Assembly: GCA_900088475.1 (NCBI GenBank)
Contig: FLMG01003379.1
Location: forward strand, 1-64,000
Direction of reading: 5' to 3'
Source: Hyphochytrium catenoides
Lineage: Eukaryota > Protista > Hyphochytriomycota
DNA: 64,000 nt
The first letter of the stretch is position 1; each line of letters starts with the position of its first letter. A program made the translations under genes and the position numbers. Of this stretch, positions 1 through 41,705 are shown in pieces. The notes beneath the pieces were generated by a model. It was not told the origin of the DNA. It worked only from the letters and a program-made list of their open reading frames with translations, and searched no databases.

Positions 1-134
1 GAAATTTCAGCAATTTGCTGATAGCGTATCGTTTAGCGTACCCCGGTGGAAGTGCTCTTCAGTAGTTTTTTATAAAAATCACCTGTAGCAAAAAGAAAAT
101 ATGACCGTTACCAAACTGACAGTGTAATGGCAAG

Positions 135-1127
135 CTAGAGTATTTCAAATATGGGTAACGGCTTTCCCCACAGCTTTGGAGCTCTCATTAGAGCTCGATA
201 CCTTCTGTTTATAGGTGGTTCGAATATCGGGAATGGTGGTGGCATCGGGTCGAGGACAAAGGGTTCGATAACGAAGGTATCCTTCTTCTTCTTACTATCT
301 AACCATTCCTTTCCAGCCACAATTCCCCATATTCCCAGCCCGACCACTGCAATGCAAGCGAGGATAAGGAACACTGCCTTCATCTTGCCATATGAACCAC
401 GAAAGGGAGCCTTCATGAGCTTGAAACCAGTACCACCAACTGCAACGATGAGTATAATAGGGACGAGGATGTAAATTAGTGGTCCAATAAGTGCTGCTCC
501 GATTGCATTGATGATACCGGCTACGAAGTTGGAGTCCGCTGTGGCCTTCTGAGTGACATCCGTAGTGGCGCTATTCTTGACGCCCATAGATTCCAGGGCC
601 TTAAGGTAGTTATCAGAGACTATCTTGGAAGCGTTCTCTTGGATAATAGTACCTGTCATATTGACTTTTTTACAATAGTCGTTTACACTGATATTGGTTT
701 TCAGTTTGGCTGCAGTGATATTCTCGGTAAGCTTTTCAGTTGTGATGGTCGTGTTAATCAGATTTCTAACCCGTGCTTCTGTCTCTGCGCTCGAAGAGGT
801 CATCGGAAACCCTTTAGCTTCGGCAGTCTGATTAGTTTTGTTGATAATAATGTCGTCGTTCTGAACCTCGGCTGTAGTCTGGGCCTCCGTCTTCTGGCTG
901 GCTTGTGCTTCGCTCTTGTTACTTTGCGTGATAATCCCACTCATTTCAAAAACACTATCCTTACAGTTAGGGGGTGCGTTAAAGGATAGCTCATTTACTA
1001 GCTCTTGTGTCACCCTCAGTGATGAAGAGATCTTTCTTCCAATCTCAGTTGACATCGACGTCAGCGCATCCGTCAACGCCTTAGCCTTGGTGTCGCCATC
1101 GATGCCTAATGCTTTCATCAGCGACAT
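135..1127 (-). CDS. Virion lipid-membrane protein, L1R/F9L-like
   Basis: 330 aa, intronless. T/S/Q/N-rich ectodomain with two Cys-containing pseudo-repeats (NCKDSVFEMSGIITQSN / YCKKVNMTGTIIQEN), then two hydrophobic C-terminal helices. No Gly-2 myristoylation site; an in-frame stop at 1157-1155 rules out an upstream start. Confidence 0.55.
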   Translation of the reverse strand: MSLMKALGIDGDTKAKALTDALTSMSTEIGRKISSSLRVTQELVNELSFNAPPNCKDSVFEMSGIITQSNKSEAQASQKTEAQTTAEVQNDDIIINKTNQTAEAKGFPMTSSSAETEARVRNLINTTITTEKLTENITAAKLKTNISVNDYCKKVNMTGTIIQENASKIVSDNYLKALESMGVKNSATTDVTQKATADSNFVAGIINAIGAALIGPLIYILVPIILIVAVGGTGFKLMKAPFRGSYGKMKAVFLILACIAVVGLGIWGIVAGKEWLDSKKKKDTFVIEPFVLDPMPPPFPIFEPPINRRYRALMRAPKLWGKPLPIFEIL

Positions 1128-1249
1128 GGTTCCAGTTTTTTGTTCAGTGCGACTCTACTACCCACACCACCTAGATCAGACGTATACCTTACGAGAGAAA
1201 AAAATAAAATGTCATTTCCAGTAGCTGCACCTCTAAGTAGAGACACCGG

Positions 1250-1720
1250 TCAAGCTGCGGTGGCTAGGTTCGCGGTACCGCGTGGGACGATAGGGGTGAT
1301 CTGCTCAAGGCTGACTGCGACTGGTACTGTCTGCGCCCGAGTTGCCGAGGTTCGACTCGCCTGCTGTTGTTCAGCTATAATCCGATCTAGGTCTGACACA
1401 GGCTCAGCTTGGACAAAGAATAAGAAGATGATCGTAAGGAACGCACCGGCAAACGTACTAACAAAGATATACAGAACCGTTGCAGGTGCTTTGTCGTCTG
1501 GGTAGACCGGAATGAGAAGTGCACAAACGATTATCATCACTAAGGAAGTTATTATAAGCCATGCTAGTACGTCAATCAATGTAATGCTTTTCAATTTTTT
1601 CTTGATTGCGCTGGCTCCCCGCTGGACTCTGGCTGATCCCCTCTCAAGAGACCTTTTGATTTGGATCTTAGATCTGGCATTATCGACTAGCAGTGAAGAC
1701 GCACCTGCGCTAGAAGCTAT
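1250..1720 (-). CDS. Small two-TM membrane protein (virus-like); start codon apparently mutated ATG>ATA
   Basis: Frame is open from ATA-GCT-TCT at 1720, just after a TAA at 1726-1724, through a basic N-terminus to two TM segments. No ATG precedes the first TM. Confidence 0.5.
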   Translation of the reverse strand: MASSAGASSLLVDNARSKIQIKRSLERGSARVQRGASAIKKKLKSITLIDVLAWLIITSLVMIIVCALLIPVYPDDKAPATVLYIFVSTFAGAFLTIIFLFFVQAEPVSDLDRIIAEQQQASRTSATRAQTVPVAVSLEQITPIVPRGTANLATAA

Positions 1721-1769
1721 ATGTTATCCAGAAGATAAAAAAAAATACTTCTATAGCTAGGACATAACA

Positions 1770-2846
1770 ATGGTGCTGGTGGCGGTATTGCTCCTCCTTG
1801 TGCTGCTTATAGTGTTTGCCGTACGACGGACCGATCATTTGGAGCCAGAGACTATCTTCGTCTCGGTGGCATCGTATAGAGACCCAAGCTGCTTGAGGAC
1901 TATCAATTTCTTGTTTAGTAATGCAAAGAAGCCGGACTTGATAGTAGTAGTCGGCATCTGCCAACAGAACAAGCATGAAGATGATGGTTGTTTAGATCCG
2001 GCATGGAGGCACCGCATTCGCATGATCAGGCTGCCCCACCACGATGCCAAGGGACCGACGTGGGCGCGCTACCTGTGCAGTACGTTATGGGATGGTGAAA
2101 CCTACTTCTTACAAATCGACTCTCACACCACGTTTGCCAGGCATTGGGATGCCAAACTCATTGGTATGATTAAAGGACTAAGGGCTAAGGGAGTCCACAA
2201 GCCAGTGCTGTCCACCTATCCCAGGAACGACACAGAGTACACCAGTCCTAGAGTCAACGATCACATACCTGTGATCTGTAAGAGCTTCTTCAATGACCGG
2301 AACTTGATTTCGTTCCCTGGAGCGGAGTTTGTGGGACCGGACCGCCAGATGATCCCGACACCATACGTCTCTGGAGGGTTACTCTTTGCACCAGCGGAGA
2401 TCCTCAAAGAAGTGCCATACGACCCTTACCTTCCAAACCTAGTTGTTGGAGAAGAGATCCTGCATAGCATACGTCTCTGGACACATGGATGGGACATCTT
2501 CGCGCCCACCGAGAATGTGGTCTTCCACTGCTACGAGCGCCAAGGTGAGCCCAAGTTCTGGGAGGACAACCACTTTGCAATTGATGACAAGGATGCCGTC
2601 GACAAGGTCAGATTCCTGCTTGGCTTGAAGGATGCGCCAAGTGCATTGCCCCGAGGTGTTAGTCTCAACATAGATAAATATGGACTGGGGACCAAGAGGT
2701 CACTTCAGGACTACCTGGCCTTCGCTGGCATCAACATAGAGAGACAAGAGGTCACCCGCAACTTCTGTACTGACACTGATGTTCCTGAAGTCTATGAGAA
2801 ATACAAATACCTGCCACCATCAAGCACAGGAGTAGTCCAGACCTAG
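1770..2846 (+). CDS. GT60-family GlcNAc-transferase (Gnt1/Gnt2-like) with N-terminal signal anchor
   Basis: Motifs TIFVSVASYRD, AKGPTWAR, YFLQIDSH, KPVLSTYP, VPYDP, GEE..HSIRLWTHGWD, YGLGTKRSL. Intronless, with a hydrophobic N-terminus. Confidence 0.85.
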   Translation: MVLVAVLLLLVLLIVFAVRRTDHLEPETIFVSVASYRDPSCLRTINFLFSNAKKPDLIVVVGICQQNKHEDDGCLDPAWRHRIRMIRLPHHDAKGPTWARYLCSTLWDGETYFLQIDSHTTFARHWDAKLIGMIKGLRAKGVHKPVLSTYPRNDTEYTSPRVNDHIPVICKSFFNDRNLISFPGAEFVGPDRQMIPTPYVSGGLLFAPAEILKEVPYDPYLPNLVVGEEILHSIRLWTHGWDIFAPTENVVFHCYERQGEPKFWEDNHFAIDDKDAVDKVRFLLGLKDAPSALPRGVSLNIDKYGLGTKRSLQDYLAFAGINIERQEVTRNFCTDTDVPEVYEKYKYLPPSSTGVVQT

Positions 2847-3021
2847 TCATGGGCGCAAACCGTAGACTAGCGTTAGCTTCTGGATTCGAACAAAACTGTA
2901 GCCGAGCGCTCAGATGTTTGTGTAGCCCTTAGATCCAAGCAGCTGGCACGAAAGCAGAATGAACCAATTGAAAAAAAAAAGAAGACGTGCTTACTTATGC
3001 GTATATAGCCTAGGACTCTAT

Positions 3022-3473
3022 TTACACTAGCGGACTCGCTAGCAGGTTAAACACGTTTTCCGCAGAAGCCTCTTGAATCTTGGAATTGTCGATTTTGAAC
3101 GAAGCAGAACGCACGCGCGGATCTGTCCACAGCGCACGCACTACGTCCATGTGCTGCTTCTCGGCCGCCCAAAGGAGCGCGCTATAATTCAAGCAAGTAG
3201 TAGGATCAACACGAGGATCCTCTAACAATGCCTTCACAACGTCGACATGCCCGTTCTGGTGGGCAGCAAACCAGAGCGCGACGCTGTCGCACGCAGACGG
3301 ATCCACACGACGAGAGTCCGCCATCAAACTCGAACCAAATCAGTATAACCTTTAGAAGCAGCTGCCATGATCGGCCCATTGTTGTCCGCAGCCGGATCAA
3401 CGTCCGGACTTTTCAATAGAGCACGAGCCGCATCTGAATTGCCAACCTTCACCACCTGCTTGAAAACCTCCAT
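3022..3473 (-). pseudogene. Ankyrin-repeat protein (DPRVDP type), single frameshift
   Basis: MEVFKQVVKVGNSDAARALLKSPDVDPAADNNGPIMAAASKGYTDLVRV, then an apparent 1-nt loss near 3327 (GTTTGATG versus expected GTT TTG ATG). Continues as LMADSRRVDPS..AAHQNGHVDVVKALLEDPRVDP. Confidence 0.8.
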
Positions 3474-3655
3474 CTTCACTATACACTATGACAACAACTC
3501 TTTTATAAAATGTTATCTTGAAAACTGTGATGGGACAACATCGTAGCATACTCGTTAGCGGCTAGTGCTGCCCACCCTTATCCGTTAGGAGCTACACAAG
3601 AACGAATGTGTAGACTGGAACCATTAGCTGCTGAAGGCGGACCATGATGGCTACG

Positions 3656-3997
3656 CCTGCTTGGCGGGCCAAGTGCATTGCCCCCCAGCGTTAGTCTAAA
3701 TATAGATAAATATGGACTGGGGACCCAGAGGTCACTACAGGACTACCTGAGCTTTGCTGGTATCAACACAGTACTGTGGGACTGTGGGTCAGCTTCCAGG
3801 TGCTGTTGCAGGAGGTCTTCTGTAGTAGTAGTAGACAGAAGTGGTAAGTCTATGTTACCTGCATAAAGTCTACCAGTAGTTCAAGTACTCCAATTATTAG
3901 GCTTCCCCACCTAGTATTGACACGGACGTTATGAGAATTACAAATACAGACAAAGCACTGGACAGACGTTAGCGGCTACCCTGGGGGCAAACCCTAG
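3656..3997 (+). pseudogene. Eroded second copy of the GT60 gene 3' end and its downstream spacer
   Basis: 3656-3771 aligns with ~2614-2739 (VSLNIDKYGLGT[K/Q]RSLQDYL[A/S]FAGIN). ~3913-3997 aligns with ~2768-2868. ~140 bp of unrelated sequence lies between. Confidence 0.85.
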
Positions 3998-4170
3998 CCT
4001 GCCGCTAACGGATATGACGGAGTAAGTTGTACTTGTAGCCATCTAGTCTGGAAGGCAAAGCTGTAGCTCTTGTCGCTAACGGATATGACGGAGCAAGTCT
4101 CGTAGCCTTGCAGCTAACACCTAGCCTGGAAAGCAAAGTTGTAGCCTTGCGGTTAGCACCTAGCGTGGGG
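3967..4170. repeat. Hairpin plus imperfect direct repeats (GTAGC/GCTAAC-rich)
   Basis: CGTTAGCGGC (3967-3976) pairs with GCCGCTAACG (4001-4010). CGCTAACGGATATGACGGAG occurs at ~4003 and ~4074. GTAGCCTTGC..ACCTAGC occurs at ~4102 and ~4141. Confidence 0.7.
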
Positions 4171-4419
4171 AGGACAGTGTTAAGCACTTTGAGACCGGAG
4201 CATCCATCAAACATGTTCGCCCCCATACGTACTAGGTCTGTACGCTAGCGTTAGCCGCTCTGTCACGGCGTCAAGCTTCCATCTGCACAAGTCAAACCTG
4301 TTGTACAAACAGCATCAGGGCAAACTGAGCGATCCAAGAGCACTATGTACCCCGCAAATTAGTGAGAAGTAAGCTAAGACAGATTGACCATGTTGTCGAG
4401 GGTAGTGTGCAAAATCTAG

Positions 4420-4824
4420 ATGGAGGACTTCTTGTTACAGCTGCGTCCTCGTCATAGTTTTGCGGAGTGTATAGTCTTGCTAAGGGCCGGTAAACTTGAC
4501 ATTCTCTTGGACGAGGCGTCTCAAGAGGAGTATGAGCATTCCTGTATAAAGCTGGTGGGGTATCTTGTGATAACCTTTTACCGCAACAATCGTCTTCTAG
4601 AGAAAACCTTTACTGGCTACTACATCCAATGTCTTCAGGACGACTTCCCGCACCTGAGTAAAACTAAGTTCAAAGTACACCTAGACCGCTATTATGCACG
4701 AGAACAAAGGAATGTCCGTAAACACTGTTTAAAGGTAAGACGTTTTACAAGGACTCTCATGCACCTCAATCTGCCTATAGACGTCATCAGGATTATCTAC
4801 CGTTTCCTCGTGGTCAAGTACTAG
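4420..4824 (+). CDS. Virus-like hypothetical protein with C-terminal F-box-like motif
   Basis: 134 aa, intronless, ending LNLPIDVIRIIYRFL. An in-frame upstream ATG at 4390 is cut off by TAG at 4417-4419. Confidence 0.5.
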   Translation: MEDFLLQLRPRHSFAECIVLLRAGKLDILLDEASQEEYEHSCIKLVGYLVITFYRNNRLLEKTFTGYYIQCLQDDFPHLSKTKFKVHLDRYYAREQRNVRKHCLKVRRFTRTLMHLNLPIDVIRIIYRFLVVKY

Positions 4825-5399
4825 TGCAAGTTAATTGCAGCGGCCACCACGAAGAACGACATAGATTCACGCATAGTAGATTACTTATTTTTTTCCTATA
4901 GTAGAATAATAACAACAAAACAAAGAGAAGGATGGTTGTGGGTCTGGCGCTTACGGCATTGGTAGGTTACGGCTGTTCAAGCATCATGGCAAGCCCCCAC
5001 CAAAGCGGGAAGTTTGGCAACCACTAGCGGAGCCCGCGCCAAACTACGATGAGAGTGACCCCTATGACACTCCCTATGACTCTGACTAGCACCGTTATCC
5101 ACTACGACCATGGCTCTATGAGTACTTCCTAGCCAGATAATCGAACCAATCGTCCTCCTTGCCCTGTCTCCACGCCTTCCTTGCCTTAATTTCTTGTTCC
5201 ATCTCAATGAGAGTAGACTCAGAGGCCCTCGGTTCCGCTTCTCCACCTGCAACCTCTTCTGCTTCCGACTCCATTGATTGTTCCGAGCCAGCTAGATCCT
5301 CACTAATAGTCTCTTGTGAGTCCGCGTCCTCTGTTCCTTCCAGGTCTGCCGCAAGCTCCTTGTTATCTTATCTTCACCAGTAGTACTATCAGAGTCACT

Positions 5400-7462
5400 A
5401 CTATCAGATATCACAATGACATATGACACTGGTCTTTGAAGTGGTTGTGGTGGCGCTGGCTTCTGCTCAGAAGATGGATAGAGCTCTCGTCTCCCTCTGG
5501 ATGGATCACAGGTCCTCTGTTGATTAACCTTGATGATGGGACTAATGGTCTCATCAACTGCCTGGTGAGATGACATCAGACTCAAGAGGGACCGGGTGGT
5601 GCCGGAGGCTGCTTGAAGGTCTGGTCTGGATGGGAAGTTTGAAAGTGACATTGTGAGGCCGACTCACAGGCATTAGCTCACTTTTCAATTTTCCATCTAC
5701 CGAACAAACCCAAGCTCCCTCCCAAGAGCAAGGTAGCCGCCTGTCCCGCCAACCGCAACCGCGTGCTACAGCCCACACATCGTCTATGGCAACGCGGTCA
5801 TCAAGATGCTCCCAAAGATGAAGATCTTTTCAGTTTGACAGAGACCATCAATGCCCTGGATGGAGAAGGTGTCTTGGAGTCCTGTCTACTGACGGCGTTC
5901 CCTGTTAACCTTCGCTGGCTACTGGATGCCTGACCTGCTTCCGAAGACCGAAGAATCCAGTGCCCCTGCTTATCATACATGGCGAGAGGCGGCGCGTCAC
6001 CTCTTATGTTGAGCCATGGAAGGACAGCCGGGGTCGCAACACATCTCGCTACATCTGTGAGCCTGCCGAGGTCGACGACAGCCAAGATCAGGACGACGAC
6101 TCTCGTTGGATTGCGACGCGTGTCCCCGACACTGTGACCTTGCTCCGTTGCCAAGCCCTCGATGAAGCCTATGAGCCCACACTGGGTGTCATGCATCCCA
6201 AGCTATCCCTTCTGTTCACCAGAGCACCTAGCCCCGGTGTCCAGGTAGTAGTCTCCAGTGCCAACCTAGTGCCCCAAGTCTCTGTCGACATGTCATGGAC
6301 ACAATGGTTTGCCGCACTGGGGTCGGCCACACCACGAGACCCGCTTGGAAGTATCCCCGAGGACTTTGGTGTCTACCTGGAAGACTTTCTGTACAAGCTT
6401 CATCAATCTATTCTTAGTCTATATAATGATGCTGGGCTGATCCTATGGTTAGAGAAGTATGGCCTAGGGCTGGATGGGCTGGCAACCTACTACGACTTCC
6501 AAGCTGCAGCTGCTGCCCTTGTCACCAGCGTCCCAGGAACTCATCGCTACCTCCTCCGGTTACCTCGGAAGAATAGCCAACACAGCTACAAGGCAAAGAC
6601 AGGAAACGAGTCTAACCTACACTATGGCCAACGTCGGGTCGCCGAGATCCTCGCAGCTATAGGCCCAGAGCTTCCACGGCCACTAACTCCCGACGATCCC
6701 TTGGTCCTCCAGCCTAAGAGTATAGGCAAGTCTATGCACCCAACGAACATGCACCTGCTCTGTGAGTCGTTTGGTAGCGACAAGTGCGATATCATCTGGC
6801 CATCCAATCACTTTATACAGAATTGCAAAGATCTGAGTTGGAAAGGTGAAAGCGGCAGGGTCTTCTTGTCAATGAAGAACTTCCTGACCATGGGACCCGA
6901 CGCCTATGAACAGTTTATCGAGTACAAGACCAGCCACCCGCAGTGGGATGGCATCGTCCCGCATCTCAAGCTCTACTCTCGACTCTACCATCAGCCGTCT
7001 ACCGACGAGGATCCTACCTTGGCATGGCTGCTCCTTACTAGTGCCTGTGTGTCTACTGGAGCACAAGGCCAATGGGCTTTCAAGACCAACATCCAACAGC
7101 CTTGGCTAACTTTACGTAACTTTGAGATTGGTGTTATGCTATGGAGCTCTAAGAGGCGGCATCTGGCTGCGAGTACGAAGCCAAGTGTAACCACTGCCGG
7201 AACTACCAAGAAGTTCTGCATGATGGCCATAATACCCTACTACCAGATTACCTCCTCACGATCAAGGCTTTGTGAGACCCAGACCCGACCGTTCCTACAT
7301 GATAGCGCCGAGGAACGTCTACACTTCTGTGTCTGGGACCAAGCAGCTACAAGCCCGCCACCAACTACAAGAACCAAACCATGTGCGTGTGCCGATGAAG
7401 AGACCGCTCAATGCCTCAGGGCCGCCGCACAAGAAGTCGAGACCCTTGCCTCTGACACCTGA
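5400..7462 (+). pseudogene. TDP1: Tyrosyl-DNA phosphodiesterase 1-like (PLD superfamily); catalytic part open (5960-7462), 5' part frameshifted
   Basis: Two HxK motifs: GVMHPKL..VVVSSANL and PHLKLY..LAWLLLTSACVS..LRNFEIGV. The upstream TDP1-type segment LESCLLTAFPVNLRWLLDA lies in another frame, ends at TGA (~5931), and has no GT donor. Further stops and shifts lie upstream. Confidence 0.7.
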
Positions 7463-7653
7463 CCTCGCTCCCAACTGTGAGGTTACTCGAGAGAGCTTGA
7501 AGGCATTTATTCTCAAGCGCTTATGTAGAAACTGTAAGAGGTTCGACCTCTCATGGACTCATAGATGTAAATCTTTGTAATCTAACATATAGTTTCGTTT
7601 TCTTCTTGAACGTCTTGAATCTTCATTGCGTGTGCTTATCTTCTTTAGTCTCG

Positions 7654-8214
7654 TTTGGCGGGAGGAACTGGATTTGAATCCTCACAGTCAATCTTCCTTA
7701 ATCACGCTTCGGCCATAAACTCCCTCTGTACACTAGGGCAAATCCTTCAAAGAAGAAGAAAAGTGGCGTTTATGAATGAGTGTAATGGGGGTACGCCAGA
7801 CATCTTAAACGCAGGCATGACGGCGAGTCTGGCCGGAAGCAACGTGGGTTTGTTTGGCCATTGCCTATTATACTATGGAGATCAAAGGTAAACCCAGCTT
7901 GACCTTTACACACGTGCCTCTTACAGATTTGAAGGAGTGGAAGGCGCGCAAAGTTACCTTTACGCCCTCCCGCGTTCCTCGTATTGGCTCCTCTGTCTTT
8001 GACAACCAGAGATTGGCATCTCTATTATCCTCTGTCTCTTCATCTTTGCCCTATTGCACTGACCTGACACCACGTTCTCGGCTATCTAGAGATCACTCTG
8101 TCTGTCAGTATCTGCCCTCTGTTTCGCTTGGTAATTGTCTGTCATTTTCTTTGTGTCTCCAACAGTCCACACGCGCCTGGCGGGAAAGAGAATCTTCAGA
8201 CACTTCCATTCAAA
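7654..8214 (+). promoter_or_regulatory. E2F-like, CCAAT and CHR-like motifs upstream of RNR small subunit
   Basis: TTTGGCGG 7654, TTTGAA 7673, ATTGG 7983 and 8012, GGCGGGAAA 8179-8187, TTCAAA 8209. Confidence 0.5.
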
Positions 8215-8393
8215 CATCAGAGGACACAGCCGAGGCTTGAACTCTCACTCTTGCATCTTCTCTCGTCTTCTTGGGAGCGCTACGCTTTCTCTCCCTTTGA
8301 GCCGAAGCTGAGACTTCACCAGTCCAAGTTTTCCCTTCCCTACAGAGTCTCGCTTCGCCCGCGTCCTCCGTAAAACAAACCAAAGCTTCCACA

Positions 8394-9570
8394 ATGCCTG
8401 CGCTTGAGTCGACCACCGCGCCTATTGAGCCTCTTGACTTTGCCATGACTTCCTCCAATGCTTCTATTTCAGATTTCAAGAGGAAAGAGCTCAATGGCGA
8501 GCTTGCTCCTGAGCCATATCTCTCAGAGAATCCAAACAGATTTGTTATCTTCCCAATCAAAGAGAACGATGTGTGGAAGATGTACAAGCAGGCAGAAGCT
8601 AGCTTTTGGACCGCTGAGGAGCTGGACCTTGTCCATGATCTTAAGGACTGGACGAAGCTTAACGATAACGAGAGACACTTCATTAAGACTGTCCTCGCCT
8701 TCTTTGCTGCTAGGTATTGCTTATAACCCGATCCGCAATTTGCCTATGTCGATCAGTACTAACGACCCCGTTGCTTTGATTGATGTTTCTCTCTCTCTTA
8801 TCCTTTGCAGTGATGGTATTGTGAATGAAAACCTTGCTATGAACTTTAGCAATGAGGTTCAAGTGCCAGAGGCGCGGTGCTTCTACGGCTTCCAAATTGC
8901 CATTGAAAACATCCATTCCGAGGTGTACTCGCTTTTGATCGACACCTACATTAAGGATCCTGTAGAGAAGGATAACACTTTTAGGGCCATTGAGACTACG
9001 GAGTGCGTGCAGAAGAAGGCTAGATGGGCACTTCAATGGTGCAACGCCAAAAATGCCGCTTATGCTGAAAGGCTTGTAGCCTTTGCTGCAGTTGAGGGCA
9101 TCTTTTTCTCTGGATCCTTTTGCTCCATCTTCTGGCTCAAGAAGCGTGGTCTCATGCCAGGACTCTGCTTTTCCAACGAGCTTATCAGCCGGGATGAGGG
9201 CCTTCACTGTGACTTCGCCTGTTTGATGTATAAGAAGCTAGTCAACAAGCTGCCCAATGACAGAATTCAGACTATTATTGCAGACGCCGTCGCCATCGAA
9301 AAAGAGTTCGTCAAGGATGCTTTGCCTGTTGAGCTCATTGGCATGAACTCTGACCTGATGTGCCAGTACATTGAGTTCGTCGCTGACAGGCTGCTCGGTG
9401 CTCTGGGCTGCCCTAAACTCTACCAGGCAAGCAACCCTTTCGACTGGATGGACATGATTTCTCTTCAAGGCAAGACCAACTTCTTTGAGAAGAGAGTAGG
9501 GGAGTACGCCAAGGCAGGTGTTGGAGTGGATAGAGAAGAGCAAGTTTTCACTCTAGACGCTGACTTTTAA
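8394..9570 (+). CDS. RRM2: Ribonucleoside-diphosphate reductase small subunit (2 exons: 8394-8713, 8811-9570)
   Basis: [53 protein letters not shown]-terminal FTLDADF. GT-AG intron with a TACTAAC branch point. Confidence 0.97.
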
Positions 9571-10039
9571 GCTATTGAGAGAAGCGATCCCTGCTCCTCT
9601 TTAGCCCCTTTCTCCGCCGCCACTCTCCACGATCTCACTCTGTACGCCTAGATTGTTATGTATTGAGTCCGGGCCCCTTCCTCACAGAGGACTCGCGCGC
9701 CTAGACCTGACAATGTAATCATTCCAAAAAAAGATCACACCGTTGATGCAAGATTGAAGTATCTGTCTCTCCTCTCCCTGGCAGACATCCTTGCTTTCTA
9801 TGTATTCTCTGTGGGCAAATCTATACAAACTCGTCAGCGAGAGATAGTCGCTCTGATCTTAAAGTTTTTCTTTTGCCCATGTGCTATGACAAACCACGAG
9901 GGGTAACGTTTGGGTGACATCTGCCGAGTAATTTGCTGGTATAGCGGCCAAGAGACCTGGTTATCTTACAGACGAAGTGAACATGAGAAGGACGAGGGAG
10001 AGAGACAGGAGGGAAAGACGGTGCACACGTCTGTCTCCT

Positions 10040-11878
10040 TTAAGGCTGGCTTGAGAGGAGATCAAAAAAGTACTGAACCTCTGAGACTGCGTCCTCCTCC
10101 AGATCTGTGCAGTGGATGCCCGGTCTGGCCCTATCCGCTCCAAACTTGGCCCTGATGGTGTGAGGCCGCAGCTCCTTAGCCATCTCAACGTCCCAAGGAC
10201 CGGCAACCTCTCTGAAGCTAGTAACCGGGTCGTTGGACCGTACCTCCAGGGCAATGCAAGGACCGCTACAGAGCTGTAAGATAGAACCTTAATGCGGGCA
10301 AGGACCCCACAAGAATAGACTAGCCAGGAGGTCATCCTAGCAATAAAAGCAATTGATAACGAAGAGGGGAGAAGAGGAACGGTTGAAAGCGACAGGGGGT
10401 AGGCCAAGGTGGTAGGAGCTGTTGGACAGGAGCTATTGGAAAAGTTGAACAGAGCTAAGACGGACCTATAAAACTATAGTGCTGGCTGTCAATGCAGAGT
10501 GGAGGAGAGCGCGCTTACCTGTGTAACAATCTCTGCAAAGTGAGGAATTACACCTTGATATACCTCCAGAAACTCCTCTGCCTGGGCCTTTGTAAGGTTG
10601 AAGAGGCCCAACGCGCTAATTTCAAAGCTCTGCTGCTGGATCATGTCTAACACCTGCCCGGCTTTCCCCTCCTTAACGACATGAGGGAGGATAACGCAGC
10701 AGCTGCCACTCTCATAGGCAGCTGTGGGTGTGTGCTTGCGACCAAAGAAGAAGTTCTGCCACTCTGGAAATGGGAGCATGAATGTGCAGAGTAAGTTATG
10801 AGGGACTGACGCGGTAAGTCGTGGACTGCGACTAAAAGAAACGAAGCTTCAAGACCACTTAATAAGAGTTTCCCAGTAGCTACGGGGTGAAATAAAGAGA
10901 GAGACAGAAAGAGAGAGAGACAGACAGACAGACAAATGGTGCGTAAGGAAGAAGAGAAGGGAAACGCAGCGATACGCTCAAAGTAGGAGAAGCAGGGCTT
11001 CATTACAGAAGAAGGCCGGAACGAGTCGGGGGTGGACCACAACTTGACAACTGTCTCACCTTCAACCTCTGCGGGGCTGCTCGCTCCTTCCACCGCTGTA
11101 TCCAAGTTTCCAGCACTGTACCGAGCTCTGAGAGCTGAAAGGAGGTTCTGGAACTTTTTAATGCTGTCTTCCGCAACCAGTTCCAGAGCCACCACCGGGC
11201 CGCTGCTCATGTGGGAGACGAGATTGTCAAAGAAAGCCGTTCCCTGCTGCTTTGTATGAAGCTCTTGGGCTTCTTCTCTGCTCAAAAGGAACATCTTTAG
11301 CTTAGAGACACTGAAGCCGTTCCGACAGATTGCATCGACAATCTTCCCCATATTATTGAAGGCATCTGGAGTGATGATGGCCATGGTTCTCTGTCGTTGG
11401 CTCTCTAAGATGGTCTTGGTTGATGGGTCTAGGTACTCAACAAGCTCCAGGCTACGACCGTGTATGAGGATTTGAGCTCCAAGATAGAAGTCTTTTGGTC
11501 CCAATGAGGGAGGAGCAGACGAGCGTTTGAGGAATAGTTTCCTAGTCTTATCGTCCATCATCTCGATCTCATGGTTCTCGGTATAATAGCGGAGCTGGTA
11601 GCGCCGGCTCATCCTGGTGCAGGTGCAATGGAGCTTGTTGGTAGGTAGCTTACAGCTCTAGAAGCGCAACGGATGGAAGCAGCAGAGCAAACGAACTTGA
11701 CAATAACCCCAAGGAAGAGAAGCAAAACTAGAACGAAAGCTGGAGGAAGTGCTAGCAAGCAGAAATCTGTGCGAGGAAAGAGACAGGATCGGCGTGATGG
11801 TAGCGCTTACTGTGCTTGATTGTCATAGTACTCCGCAATGAAACCATAGACAACATCCTCCTTCTTAGGGGTCTGCAT
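10040..11878 (-). CDS. NME7: Nucleoside diphosphate kinase 7 (DM10 + two NDK domains); exons 11878-11811, 11613-11060, 10765-10519, 10273-10040
   Basis: DM10 (FIAEYYDNQAQ..RRYQLRYY..FLKR), HMSSGPVVALEL, AEEFLEVY, IRAKFG..GIHCTDLEED. All introns are GT-AG and in phase. Confidence 0.92.
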
Positions 11879-13495
11879 TGTGCTTAACCGGGTCCAGGGT
11901 CAGCTCTGCAGCTTTGGCGTTGCGCTTTTACACTCTTGACTATTAAACAAGGGGTTCCTCTGAACTGCTATTGCACTTCCTTCTTCTGAAGAAAAGCAGC
12001 AAGCTATAGTTGGTTCGCACAGTGAGGCGTCGTCGCCCAGCCTAACTATTCCTCCGTTCTAGCGAACAACCAGTGACCACGATCACTGCACCGCGTTTGA
12101 CAGTCTATCAGTTTGCCCAGCTCTACGCAACAGACCAGCCGCTCGATATCAGGCAGAGAGGACTCACCACTATACAAAGAAACGAGTCCCCACGGCTCAA
12201 TGCGGAGAGTCCTGGCAGCAATCTTCCGGATGCCTGACTGTCCGCTGGATGACTGCACTGCGTGACTACGGATCCCAGTCCAGCAGCGCGGCGGCCACTT
12301 CGAAGGAATGTACGAGTCAGCCAAAAAAGCGTTTCAAAGTGCCTGTAGTGTGTAAAGAGGTCAACACGATGATAGCGAGACCGTATTTACGATGCAATAA
12401 TATGTTATTCGGAAAATATGATTATCTCGTGATTGACATTCAGGTTAATGAAGTATTGGCCATCCTTTCTGTCTATACGGGTCAGAGATGGGTTATTGGG
12501 AGTTCGAAACCACGTGGACATTTGTTTCGGAGCTTCAATGAAGATTTTGCAGACGAGCTGCAGGCGCTCGCTGTGTGGGAAGCCTGTCTCTTACGTTAGC
12601 TTATTCAGCTCGAGATCCAGATGGAGACTGAGCTGAGTGGGAGGGTGCGATATGTAGGTCGGAAGCCCAGTAGGAGGAGGGCAAGAGTAAGGGCAGTGGG
12701 GTCAAACATACTGGCGAAAATTGTCATCAAGAGACAAAGCATATGCCTTGCGGATCACTAAGGATTGAAGGCAATACGAAGCAGGAAGTGCAGTAAGGTA
12801 TCTGACGCGATATGGGTACCTTCAGGAGATTGACGTAGGTTAGGGAGCTTGAAAAAGTTTGAGGGGTGTCTAAACCAGACGACTATCGCTTGGCGATGGC
12901 AAAACGCTAGTTCATATGGGTATCCGATGCGCCAGCAGCCCACAATGGTCACAAGCACCCAATCCATGCTGCGGATTCTATTCTCCAGCCCTGCACTCTA
13001 ATCCTTCTCACTAGAGAGGGCTTTCTCGGACGCATGGCTCGCACATGTCTCTTGTTGATTCGGCCCCAATGCACTCGTCAATGCCCTAGTCGAACTATCT
13101 AGCTTCTCCAGTGAGCAGCGTGATAGTCCCGTAGACCCATAGACTTATGCAGTTTGGTTCACTGGCCAGCCATTGCCATGTCCCTAGTCGGCATACTGAC
13201 TTCATCAGTGACGAACCTGACAGCTGTGCGTCGCACTGCTGCCTCGTTAAGCAGAGCAAAGGACCAAAGAGCAAGTGCTTCCAATGAGGAAAAGGGTTCG
13301 ACAAGAAGGTATAGAAGGTCTCTCTGTAGGAAGATATATCTCCTATAACGCATATTACTCGAAATGAAGGAGCTACTATCTGACCTTCACACTGACATCA
13401 CTGTCGACACACGGCCAATGGCCACATAGAAACGACTTGAGCACGAAGACATCAAGAGCAGGAGGATGATAGGGAAGTCACATCTAGAGAGGTCC

Positions 13496-27850: not shown

Positions 27851-29383
27851 ATGTCATCGGAAGTGGTCGAGATGGAGACCCTCCTGGATCTCAACACACC
27901 CGTGCACAGTAATGTGCTGCCAAGATGGCAGCGGAAGGCGCTCATGGCCCACACTCCTAGTAAGGCGACCGGTACACCGAAGCGCAAGACACCCGGAAGA
28001 AACACGAAGACACCTTCGAAGGTAAACCTCCGACTTGAATGGCTTTCAGACGGCCCAGACTGACGAGGGCCCTATTTGTCACAGAGCGACCGGTTCATTC
28101 CCAACCGGGCGGCCATGGATATGGACATCTCGCACTATCACCTTACAAAGGGCAACGAGAACGCCTATCCCGACAATCAGAGCGAGAATTCAACCCAAGC
28201 AGAGTTCAAGAAGACACTTGCCGCAAGTTTGTTCAACGGCAACACAGCGGCTGAAGGAGGCAAAGAACATCGCGTCTTAGCATTCCGAAACAAGGCACCC
28301 GCACCTAAGGAAGGGTACTCCAATACTCTGAAGGTCCTCTATTCCCAGAACAAAACTGCTGGCGTTTCTACCAAAGTCACGAGACACATTCCATCAGCGC
28401 CAACTCGCATTCTTGACGCTCCTGAGCTTATTGATGACTACTACCTCAACCTTATTTCTTGGGGCGCAAGGAACATTCTAGCTGTGGCTCTGGGACAGTC
28501 AGTCTACCTTTGGAATGCCGAGACTGGCTCAATTGAAGAACTGATGCAGTGCTCAGAGCCAGATGATTACGTGACCTCCGTGTCCTGGATCAAGGAAGGA
28601 GGAAATCATTTGGCAATTGGCACGAATTATGCTGATGTCCAGATTTGGGACGCGTCTGCTGTCAAGCAGGTGCGCTCCATGTCGGGTCATGAGGCTAGAG
28701 TAAGCAGTCTGGCTTGGAACTCGCACATCCTGTCTTCTGGCTCAAGAGATTCCACCATCATCAACCATGACGTCAGAATAGCCCAGCATCACGTTGCTAC
28801 TCTTGCTGGACATCAGCAAGAGGTATGCGGTCTCACCTGGTCTCCAGATGGCACAACACTTGCTTCCGGGGGCAACGACAACCTTCTATGTCTCTGGGAT
28901 GCTGCCTTCAGCGGTGGGACCCATCAGCCAAGGTTTACTCTGAGCCACCACCAGGCCGCCGTCAAGGCTCTGGCATGGTGCCCATGGGAGAGAAATTTGC
29001 TTGCCTCTGGAGGAGGAACTGCTGACCGCACCATCAAGTTCTGGAACTCTACAAACGGGGCTTTGCTGAACTCCATCGATACAGGCTCTCAAGTCTGTTC
29101 TCTCCTATGGTCACCTACGGAGAAGGAGATCCTCTCATCTCATGGGTTCTCACAGAATCAGCTCTGCCTCTGGAAGTACCCTTCCATGGCCAAGATTAAG
29201 GAGTTGACAGGCCATACTGCGCGTGTGCTCCATATGGCAGCCTCACCCGACAACTCATGCGTTGTCTCTGCGGCAGCGGACGAGACTCTTCGTTTTTGGA
29301 ATGTGTTCGCGAGCTCCAAGAGCGCCAAGAAGGCGGAAGACATCTCAAGGAGTCAGCTCATGAGCACCATGAGAATCAGGTAA
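27851..29383 (+). CDS. CDC20: APC/C activator CDC20/Fizzy (exons 27851-28021, 28085-29383)
   Basis: C-box DRFIPNR, MIM-like HRVLAF, LDAPELIDDYYLNL, WD40 repeats, C-terminal IR tail. 63-nt GT-AG intron, plus a probable 5'UTR intron ending at 27845. Confidence 0.96.
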
Positions 29384-40466: not shown

Positions 40467-41240
40467 CTACGCTATCTCCTCTTCCAGCTCAAGCTCCTCT
40501 TCTACCTCCCGCTCTATCCGTCTCTCTATGCTCGCTTTCTGTCTTTCGGTGTCACGTTCGTATTCTACCTCCTCTTGTGCCTCTTCTTCTATGAAAATAG
40601 CTTGCATCCCTTCGTTCTCTCGCCCCTGGTCCTCCGAAAGCTCCTTACTTTCTTCCTTCCTCCTGAGGTGCTCTACCTCTTCCCAAAGTTCTACAACCTG
40701 GGCATTGTTTCTTGACCTTTGTGACAAGGACATGTCGGCCATTGCCATAGAGAGTCCATCTTCATAGTCTGCTGCCGTTGCTTGGGGCGGCAGGGATACT
40801 GATAGCGACCCAAATACTAAGCCACAGTCGGTACACACCACTTCGCCGTCAATGTAAGTCAGTTTGTCTTCGACATGGAGACAATTAAGATCTCTACAGA
40901 GCGGATTGAGTATCTCCTGTCCTTCGGTGTTGTTGCTAGCTCGGGCATAGTCCATTGCTGTCTTCTTCTTCCAGTTCTTCAGGCTTATGTCGCTCCCCAG
41001 CTTCAGTAAAACCTTCAGTTCATCCGTCCTCGTTGGGTACCGCGCAGCCGCCATCAGGGGTGTGGCCCCATCTGCCTTCCTCTGTACATTGACATTCTCC
41101 ATTCCAACATTCTCCCATAGGAGACGAAAATCATCGCGCATCATAGCGTTCCAAATCGCTTCATCCATAGTATCATCCGCCACCTGGGGCTTGGACGCCT
41201 CATCGTCCTGCTCCTCTAACCTCTTTCGCTGCCGCATCAT
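40467..41240 (-). CDS. Ankyrin-repeat + TFIIB-type Zn-ribbon + acidic coiled-coil protein (5' end uncertain)
   Basis: DGATPLMAAA..LLKLGSDISLKNWKKKTAMDYA, then CRDLNC..DGEVVCTDCGLVFG, then an E-rich tail. Confidence 0.65.
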   Translation of the reverse strand: MMRQRKRLEEQDDEASKPQVADDTMDEAIWNAMMRDDFRLLWENVGMENVNVQRKADGATPLMAAARYPTRTDELKVLLKLGSDISLKNWKKKTAMDYARASNNTEGQEILNPLCRDLNCLHVEDKLTYIDGEVVCTDCGLVFGSLSVSLPPQATAADYEDGLSMAMADMSLSQRSRNNAQVVELWEEVEHLRRKEESKELSEDQGRENEGMQAIFIEEEAQEEVEYERDTERQKASIERRIEREVEEELELEEEIA

Positions 41241-41705
41241 CTCCCCTGTCAACAGCGATTGGTTGTGACAGCCAGATAGACCCACAGGAACTCCTCTTAG
41301 AGTCCACTGCTGCCCTGCTCCTTCTGCGCCTCAACTGGAAGATGTTACAGTCTCGCAGTTAAGCTCTAATAAGAGCTCCAAATATCCTCTTTATCTTCGT
41401 CGTTGCCATCGTCCATCGTCCATGCTTCCCATCATCCTGGGCGGGAGGTCCAGACTCAGACTTCCGATCTGGCCTATCGACCCGCGTTGCCCTCAGGAAT
41501 AAAGCAAACATAAATAGATGTTATTCGGTAATAAGGCTATTTCGGTGGGGGATACATTGAAGAACGAAGTTCTCGTGGTGGAATTAGCAATTCTTGTAAC
41601 TGCATAACCCGTGAAGTTCGTCAGCACATTTTCCTGTCAAGTCGCATCGTCGGCTTCGTCGGACGTGAGACCTGCTCTCCAATACCGACCTTGCGGCACA
41701 GCTAG

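Follow-up and report, generated by a model that had tools for sequence, protein, structure and literature searches.

The left end of contig FLMG01003379.1 of Hyphochytrium catenoides raises the question of whether a giant virus has left part of its genome in a chromosome of this stramenopile and, if so, which virus it was. The window analysed here comprises the whole stretch of 64,000 nucleotides, and the original prediction described its first 4,900 nucleotides as the edge of a decaying endogenous giant-virus insertion. Our analysis agrees with the core of this description. With a probability of about 0.82, the block is Nucleocytoviricota (Megaviricetes) DNA that was captured and has since been decaying, and that is likely present on one haplotype and likely non-functional. 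The viral origin is supported by a VP88 profile match, by the occurrence of GT60 genes in GVMAG loci and by the relatives of a DPRVDP-type ankyrin gene; many of the top protein matches are unnamed and may therefore, as far as names go, include eukaryote copies.

Intronless genes of the Nucleocytoviricota type occupy positions 135-4824. As predicted, they form five packed ORFs: 135-1127 (-), 1250-1537 (-), 1770-2846 (+), 3022-3473 (-, in two frames) and 4420-4824 (+). The coding share is 90% in 135-3473, which holds the first four ORFs, and 75% in the whole span 135-4824. The spacers are indeed rich in A/T tracts, as runs of at least 6 number 8 in 1-4900 (1.63 per kb) versus 27 in 7701-64000 (0.48 per kb). 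The palindrome TTTTATAAAA was found across the 64 kb at positions 68 and 3501 only (0.03 copies expected; 2 copies reached in 0 of 100 shuffles). Its first copy is contained in a T6-A-T-A5 palindrome (66..78) located 57 nt beyond the ORF1 stop, which is predicted to function as a 3'-end hairpin; the second (3501..3510) precedes the start of the ankyrin gene by 28 nt. Block and host are not separated by a GC step (48% versus 49.5-50%), and both GC and GC3 of the block match the host values. In Pfam scans, none of the core markers polB, MCP, A32 and VLTF3, on which the strict GEVE criterion rests, was detected in the block or in the 113 longer host-side frames of the window. No Pfam match to an integrase was present in the window and no attachment site is in view.

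ORF1 (135..1127, minus strand; 330 amino acids, frame intact) encodes a VP88/53R (L1R/E248R-like) inner-membrane anchor protein with two C-terminal hydrophobic helices in the hydropathy profile. Among 1.84 billion proteins 10 homologues were found, the best sharing 35% identity in an alignment that begins at residue 1 (E 2e-28). An ORF1 profile matched iridovirus VP88 (PDB 8hif_y4) with E-values of 2.5e-14 and 1.8e-14, the sole significant match among 177,635 PDB sequences, and aligned with it over 200 positions starting at the N-terminus; the homology is transitive, as it was built through 10-22 homologues. VP88 is described as an inner-membrane anchor protein in PMC10090177. The L1R/F9L identity proposed originally is supported through the profile match only and was not recovered by the Pfam L1R_F9L model (PF02442), which missed ORF1 as well as its 10 homologues. 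ORF1 shares the C-terminal membrane helices with SGIV VP88 and FV3 53R (PDB 8HIF), but it has 330 instead of 506 amino acids. It also lacks the N-terminal MGxxxS myristoylation motif: ORF1 starts with MSLMKA, its N-terminus aligns with homologue P0136 from residue 1, and in contrast to VP88/53R its nearest relatives (P0136, P0137, P0144, P0162) likewise start with MSL, MAS, MSG or MSS, without an N-terminal MG. Judged from these sequences, the subfamily appears to have a non-myristoylated type of start, MSL instead of MG. MG-type membrane proteins of two unclassified, GT60-bearing metagenome loci (L169 and L127), which serve as the Imitervirales comparison, scored 33 and 29 bits with the ORF1 profile, below the 57 bits of iridovirus VP88.

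Structure-based and other searches with ORF1 contributed little. Both AlphaFold models are of low confidence (pLDDT 46 and 40). In a BFVD fold search, five of the first 12 rows were named for the protein class of ORF1 (one as pE248R, one as a myristylated membrane protein, and three as lipid membrane proteins of pithoviruses and orpheovirus), none of them at E<=0.001, and neither BFVD nor PDB fold searches gave any match at that threshold. A search of the ESM Atlas returned no matches, a word-based search found ORF1 in 0 of 3870 candidates, and pattern scans of viral and metagenome contigs gave no match for ORF1, P0144 or P0137. Viral bins and records searched with ORF1, alignment A4 and PF02442 gave no match either; as the PF02442 control was silent everywhere, these blank searches are uninformative for ORF1.

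The product of the second ORF (1250..1717, minus strand) is a small membrane protein for which two helices are predicted; counted from the first ATG at 1537, it has 95 amino acids. The open frame continues to 1717 without a start codon, and an upstream start has likely been lost. No homologues of ORF2 were found. ORF3 (1770..2846, plus strand; 358 amino acids) is a GT60 GlcNAc transferase (PF11397, Pfam E 1.7e-83) with an N-terminal membrane anchor and an open frame, and is at most 52% identical to proteins of IMG/VR giant-virus records. GT60 genes were found in 80 IMG/VR loci, 31 of which are named GVMAG; 21 were looked up and 11 proved to be classified (five PM_01, five Imitervirales, one Algavirales). 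ORF3 is drifting at conserved sites: it deviates at 10 of 108 near-invariant columns, compared to 0-5 in 29 relatives. Of a further GT60 copy, a 3' piece is present (3648..3771, plus strand). It shares 88% identity with 2636-2739, and third codon positions account for 7 of the 13 differences.

The fourth gene (3022..3473, minus strand) is a DPRVDP-type ankyrin gene recognized by Pfam Ank, with a frameshift and stop near 3325. When read with an X at the break, it shows 49% identity over 124 amino acids to a GVMAG ankyrin. The DPRVDP motif occurs in 71 viral loci, for which nine bins were looked up and six are classified (Pimascovirales 4, Mimiviridae 2). The single viral match from another search with the ankyrin gene (L101) is a phage gene covering 24 amino acids only and was dropped as spurious. 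ORF5 (4420..4824, plus strand; 134 amino acids) carries the C-terminal motif LPIDVIRII; the original prediction had pointed to C-terminal F-box-like motifs, but no F-box Pfam match was obtained. A PM_01 bin holds an ORF that matches ORF5 weakly over 36 amino acids, with an E-value of 2e-4 among 6076 ORFs, versus 0.021 for the best of 15 shuffles. Broken frames, as reported before, were recovered in the ankyrin gene near 3325 and in the second GT60 3' fragment (3668-3771), and with the TDP1 frameshift described below and the drift of ORF3 they account for the picture of decay.

The block is bordered and interrupted by repeats. Its left border is a 52-nt tandem repeat unit (1..58, about 20 copies), of which variants elsewhere carry arms that are palindromic and, on the right, A-rich flanks of several different kinds. 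The joint 50->1 has a depth of 4246 compared to 204 for the block in X1 and of 455 compared to 17.8 in X2, and the loose ends behind 58-59 vary among contigs. A dispersed repeat with a (TAG)n tract (3785..3916) has about 10 times the block depth and several different flanks, and short degenerate direct repeats with spacings of 39, 71 and 78 nt lie at 4000..4178. For segments 1-100, 3785-3916 and 3990-4139, predicted folding did not exceed that of shuffled sequence (z -1.19, 0.20 and 1.78), so a palindromic repeat of the pithovirus type is unsupported.

Whether the block is integrated was addressed with contigs from sequencing runs (X1 and X2); the three runs represent at most two samples of one study, possibly the window's own source, and their depths are contig depths and not copy numbers. 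In X1, contigs with 0 differences to the window cover 56-3599 at depth 204, 3880-6769 at depth 222 and 6746-7864 at depth 220, while host contigs have a depth of 411.5 where difference-free (11255-11630) and 175-188 where haplotype-specific. X2 repeats this pattern (13-18 versus 21-29). The block depth thus amounts to 0.49-0.54 of the difference-free host contig in X1, based on contig depths of a single study, and to 1.1-1.2 of the haplotype-specific contigs in X1 and X2. A mixed culture would likewise halve depth. The overlapping exact contigs across 3880-7864, which include ORF5 and the TDP1-like gene, are continuous into the diploid host region. Because half depth coincides with exact contigs that run into diploid host DNA, the block is likely integrated on one haplotype. 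Contig continuity and depth together also rule out a free contaminating virus for 3880-7864, and the joining to host DNA, at the depth of one haplotype, supports the view that the element is endogenised. No contig found bridges the 66 nt between 3814 and 3880 inside the multi-copy repeat, and the connection of the part from ORF1 to the ankyrin gene with the host side therefore depends on the original assembly together with the equal depth at either side of this repeat (204 and 222 in X1, 17.8 and 15.9 in X2).

The boundary at about 4900 proposed earlier has to be moved, as half depth without SNPs extends to about 7700-7800, a stretch that takes in a TDP1-like gene free of introns (5760..7462, plus strand, start approximate; PF06087 E 4.8e-23) with a frameshift near 5935. 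This gene may be host or viral in origin. A paralogue about 82% identical to it lies in a different single-depth context, on contigs of 11,998 and 11,255 nt with a depth of about 230; TDP1 had no match in viral contigs or PDB, and no mention of it was found in the limited library of literature searched. The second haplotype joins at 7670..7864, where depth rises to the diploid level (the left limit is deduced from bin depth): the X1 contig 6746-7864 is exact at depth 220 and a second contig of depth 188 carries indels at 7785-7819. The first clear host gene encodes the ribonucleotide reductase small subunit (8394..9570, plus strand) with a 97-nt GT..AG intron at 8714-8810, and is followed by NME7, PRP39, CDC20, Gemin2, Lon, SPT20 and RME-8, in agreement with the predicted transition to intron-rich host DNA.

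Three other explanations were weighed against an integrated and decaying fragment. The gap in contig coverage leaves room for a misjoin, in which 56-3785 would be a separate single-copy viral piece, either another insertion or a low-copy episome, attached through the repeat at 3785-3916. Its roughly tenfold depth and several flanks, and the lack of any contig found to cross 3814-3880, fit such an arrangement. However, depth is nearly equal at both sides, only 66 nt are unbridged, the host-linked ORF5 is itself virus-like and a broken ankyrin gene would be unfit for an active virus, which makes a misjoin improbable. It is even harder to regard the genes as host genes, or as domesticated viral genes in host use. 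Eukaryotes possess both GT60 and TDP1 families, ORF1, GT60 and ORF5 are open, and GC and GC3 equal those of the host; yet single-haplotype depth, the absence of introns and the broken neighbours speak against it, as do the drift of GT60 at conserved sites and the fact that the only solved relative of ORF1 is a capsid-anchor protein. We consider this reading highly unlikely.

The remaining explanation concerns the size of the element and is compatible with the integrated fragment: the block may form the right-hand terminus of a large provirus, perhaps almost complete, that continues beyond the array at 1-58. The several other A-rich flanks of that repeat and the two long single-depth contigs with the TDP1 paralogue point in this direction, since they mean that the genome holds more single-haplotype DNA of related make-up. 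Set against this, the visible part is already fragmented, the window starts at the array and the long contigs are known only by their TDP1 match. A large provirus is a real possibility, somewhat short of an even chance.

As the block contains no core marker gene, the donor is assigned to an order by probability only. The Pimascovirales lineage of the original prediction stands in part: ORF1, the ankyrin gene and ORF5 lean there, GT60 does not, and the relatives are split with Imitervirales. We give Pimascovirales about an even chance. The relatives in that order point more to PM_01 and Marseilleviridae than to the pithovirus and orpheovirus relatives originally favoured, and PM_07 (Pithoviridae) accounts for only one of 17 classified bins. 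A phaeovirus, which had been disfavoured before, remains so by bin classes and Pfam, given 0 of 17 bins in Pandoravirales and no integrase. PM_01 bins carry GT60 (5 bins) and a DPRVDP ankyrin (1 bin), and PM_01 is the source of the only ORF5 match (genus g85, 46% GC, on the same contig as its GT60). However, the window's GT60 does not cluster with the PM_01 copies, and an insensitive search of six PM_01 bins found no ORF1 homologue. A PM_01-like donor within Pimascovirales is rather doubtful. In Imitervirales (IM_01, IM_02, IM_12, IM_16 and IM_18), GT60 occurs in five bins and a DPRVDP ankyrin in two, and among classified copies it is the GT60 of IM_02 that lies closest in tree distance (1.43, versus 1.70-1.97 for PM_01). 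The only locus with gene context in the window's GT60 clade (L102) holds PhoH, dNK, exonuclease III and alginate lyase, a set which we take to be Imitervirales-like. This order is a plausible donor, at less than even odds, and another or mixed donor is unlikely. In a more specific picture, a PM_01-like virus with a non-myristoylated variant of the VP88 anchor would have inserted recently into one haplotype of a stramenopile, and the block would be the end of that insertion that is in view. This picture is tentative and on balance improbable.

Under the preferred reading, an integrated and decaying viral fragment, viral DNA would have been captured during infection by end-joining or ectopic repair of the host, in a region that is rich in repeats and variable between haplotypes. 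Later it would have been trimmed, repeats of the host genome would have become mixed in along with another copy of GT60 and one of TDP1, and the whole would now be decaying free of selection. While still part of the virus, ORF1 would have tied the capsid to the inner membrane, like VP88, and GT60 would have glycosylated virion or host proteins. The single-haplotype depth suggests that the insertion is young enough to be dated against the empty allele.

Direct evidence of which eukaryotes giant viruses infect is scarce, and integrated fragments are one source of it. Cultured Pimascovirales have animals and amoebozoans as hosts (PMC11840718), and PMC13691094 describes PM_01 as a group of unknown host range; a limited literature search found no report of a Pimascovirales element in a stramenopile genome. 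If the donor belongs to PM_01, this family, abundant but uncultured, would gain its first link to a host from genomic data, and Pimascovirales would gain a host other than the amoebozoans and animals on record for the order. Core genes beyond the array that put the donor in PM_01 would make the sequenced host usable for isolating such a virus, and if the donor belongs to Imitervirales the block would be a further case of the ordinary EVEs of algae and protists. Endogenous giant-virus fragments of this sort are already known: a brown alga carries small phaeovirus fragments (PMC11890097), and GEVEs have been surveyed (PMC13524828). Compared to algal GEVEs, the H. catenoides block is about 5-8 kb in its visible part, is without a core marker, has single-haplotype depth and has none of its 17 classified relatives in Pandoravirales. 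Like the algal GEVEs and NCV EVEs, it is a giant-virus fragment in a eukaryote chromosome, intronless, degenerating and mixed with repeats.

The left end of the window, up to a junction with host DNA, carries virus-type genes and is here called the block. The five ORFs of the original prediction were borne out by frame reading: ORF1 (135-1127, minus strand), ORF2 (1250-1537, minus strand), ORF3 (1770-2846, plus strand), an ankyrin gene split over two frames (3022-3473, minus strand) and ORF5 (4420-4824, plus strand). All are intronless; of 135-3473, 90% lies within the first four. The predicted TTTTATAAAA palindromes occur at 68 and 3501 only (0.03 expected), and the predicted richness in A/T tracts was also found, with eight runs of at least 6 in 1-4900 and 27 in 7701-64000 (~3x density). 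Comparison of GC content between block and host gave no difference; CpG depletion is weaker in 60-3600, where observed/expected is 0.84, than in the host, with values of 0.62-0.72.

The block further contains an intronless TDP1-like gene, with a frameshift near 5935 relative to a ~82% identical paralogue. This paralogue (matching 5816-7154) lies in a different context in contigs of 11,998 and 11,255 nt at single-haplotype depth (~230). Neither contig extends into the RNR gene, and both may represent additional foreign or haplotype-specific sequence. Two repeats are present. Positions 1-58 belong to a 52-nt tandem repeat at ~20x block depth, with variant units carrying inverted arms; elsewhere in the genome it is followed by several different A-rich flanks. 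A subtelomeric satellite and an intergenic repeat of a virus are both conceivable identities for it. The second (3785-3916) is dispersed, has a (TAG)n tract and is at ~tenfold depth. Its other copies share a common alternative left flank with a short open frame stopping at the (TAG)n tract, which seems to resemble a retroelement 3' end.

Broken frames had been predicted, and the ankyrin gene indeed has a frameshift near 3325; the upstream start of ORF2 appears to be lost. A second GT60 3' fragment (3648-3771, plus strand) differs from the 3' end of ORF3 at 13 sites. Seven of these are third positions, suggesting that the fragment had already diverged under selection when it was captured and did not arise by duplication in place. 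ORF3 is open and deviates at 10 of 108 near-invariant columns versus 0-5 in 29 relatives, a contrast inflated by relatives that resemble one another more than they resemble ORF3.

Intron-bearing host DNA adjoins the block as predicted: eukaryote genes start at 8394, and a GT..AG intron (8714-8810) interrupts the first of them. The host may be a stramenopile, judging by the similarity of RNR and CDC20. The host CDC20 gene (28064-29383) is a single open frame without introns amid an intron-rich region, and in a host-side ORF (40467-41330) a TFIIB-type zinc ribbon is fused with an ankyrin repeat that differs from the DPRVDP type. Depth was taken from contigs of three runs, which represent no more than two samples from a single study and may be the source of the window itself. 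In the first contig set, 56-3599, 3880-6769 and 6746-7864 show zero differences to the window at depths of 204, 222 and 220, compared to 411.5 for difference-free and 175-188 for haplotype-specific host contigs; contig depth is not strict copy number, and a two-strain culture would give an identical picture. The second set showed the same pattern. Because of this half depth and the onset of a second haplotype at ~7670-7785 (indels 7785-7819), the block is likely confined to one haplotype, and its right edge lies near 7700-7800 instead of at the proposed 4900. Haplotype differences are numerous in 7800-12000; one contig of 1021 nt, for example, has 12, and indels occur as well. This reflects either heterozygosity in a diploid or a culture of two strains.

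The predicted endogenised giant-virus origin agrees with what was observed directly, namely virus-type genes, breaks, half depth and the linkage of 3880-7864 to host DNA. We infer, with a probability of about 80%, that viral DNA would have been taken up through host repair in a region rich in repeats and variable between haplotypes, would later have been fragmented and would finally have become non-functional. That the left part was misjoined at the repeat would fit the finding that 3814-3880, inside the ~tenfold-depth repeat, is crossed by none of the listed contigs; we consider it improbable. Domestication of the block genes by the host is very improbable. Separate from the origin by host-repair capture is the question of a larger provirus extending leftward, which is possible but less likely than not.

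Pfam identifies ORF3 as a GT60 GlcNAc transferase. Its relatives among the 120 matches listed share 46-58% identity and mostly lack names, and 31 of 80 related IMG/VR loci carry names of giant-virus bins (metagenome-assembled genomes). Checking 21 of these 31, mainly high-scoring loci, against the supplement of PMC8575486 retrieved 11: five of the uncultured Pimascovirales family PM_01, five Imitervirales and one Algavirales. With 64 PM_01 genomes in the reference set versus 655 of the Imitervirales family IM_01, PM_01 is over-represented (5/11), in a lookup favouring high-scoring loci. In the tree ORF3 falls inside a clade of unclassified proteins, the closest classified copy being from IM_02 (Imitervirales). 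The only clade member with gene context is a locus with PhoH, dNK, exonuclease III and alginate lyase. This locus (JACCDP010873299.1, 1-19836; GC-rich at 54%), whose GT60 is the closest to ORF3 among those with context, is giant-virus-like and also encodes an S74 chaperone domain and glycosyltransferases. The K-x-L-L-x-DPRVDP motif of the ankyrin gene is present in 71 viral loci; six of nine named bins are classified (Marseilleviridae 2, Pithoviridae 1, PM_01 1, Mimiviridae 2), and the top match (49%) belongs to an unclassified bin. ORF5 matched no family in a Pfam scan; it matches a 36-aa stretch of an ORF from a PM_01 g85 bin (E 2e-4 with 6076 ORFs compared; lowest E in 15 shuffles 0.021). 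A homologue search for ORF2 found none.

ORF1 had been assigned to L1R/F9L. The Pfam L1R_F9L family is not matched, but profiles of its homologues (10 among 1.84 billion proteins, all scanned; best 35% identity, starting at residue 1) have iridovirus VP88 as sole significant PDB match (E 2.5e-14 and 1.8e-14). PMC10090177 describes VP88 as a homologue of 53R that serves the capsid as its inner-membrane anchor. Five of the first 12 BFVD rows for a low-confidence ORF1 model, none significant, are of this protein class (pE248R, iridovirus myristylated membrane protein, and pithovirus and orpheovirus lipid membrane proteins). ORF1 groups with P0136, P0144, P0162 and P0163 (support 0.83), followed by P0137 (0.77). 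An anchor role of the VP88/L1R type is therefore likely. In contrast to such anchors, ORF1 lacks two marks of membership, the Pfam score and the N-terminal MG motif, the latter absent from its group relatives too. P0136, P0137, P0144 and P0162 form a VP88-like subfamily without this motif, nameless in the sources and beyond the reach of Pfam.

On the proposed Pimascovirales affiliation the genes are split: ORF1, the ankyrin gene and ORF5 lean that way and GT60 does not, and core markers that would fix the viral order are absent from the window. Kinship with pithoviruses or orpheoviruses is disfavoured (1 of 17 classified bins), and the exclusion of a phaeovirus is in line with the count of zero phaeovirus relatives among classified bins. 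PM_01 as the donor is possible but rather unlikely. Pimascovirales are known to infect animals and amoebozoans (PMC11840718), and PM_01 hosts are termed unknown, with co-occurrence ties to several algae and protists (PMC13691094). The literature searched did not describe any Pimascovirales element from a stramenopile; the supplementary tables of PMC13524828 may bear on this. Since giant-virus fragments are well known from algal and protist genomes, as PMC11890097, PMC12993054 and PMC13524828 indicate, the block is of a familiar type and one more example of such fragments.
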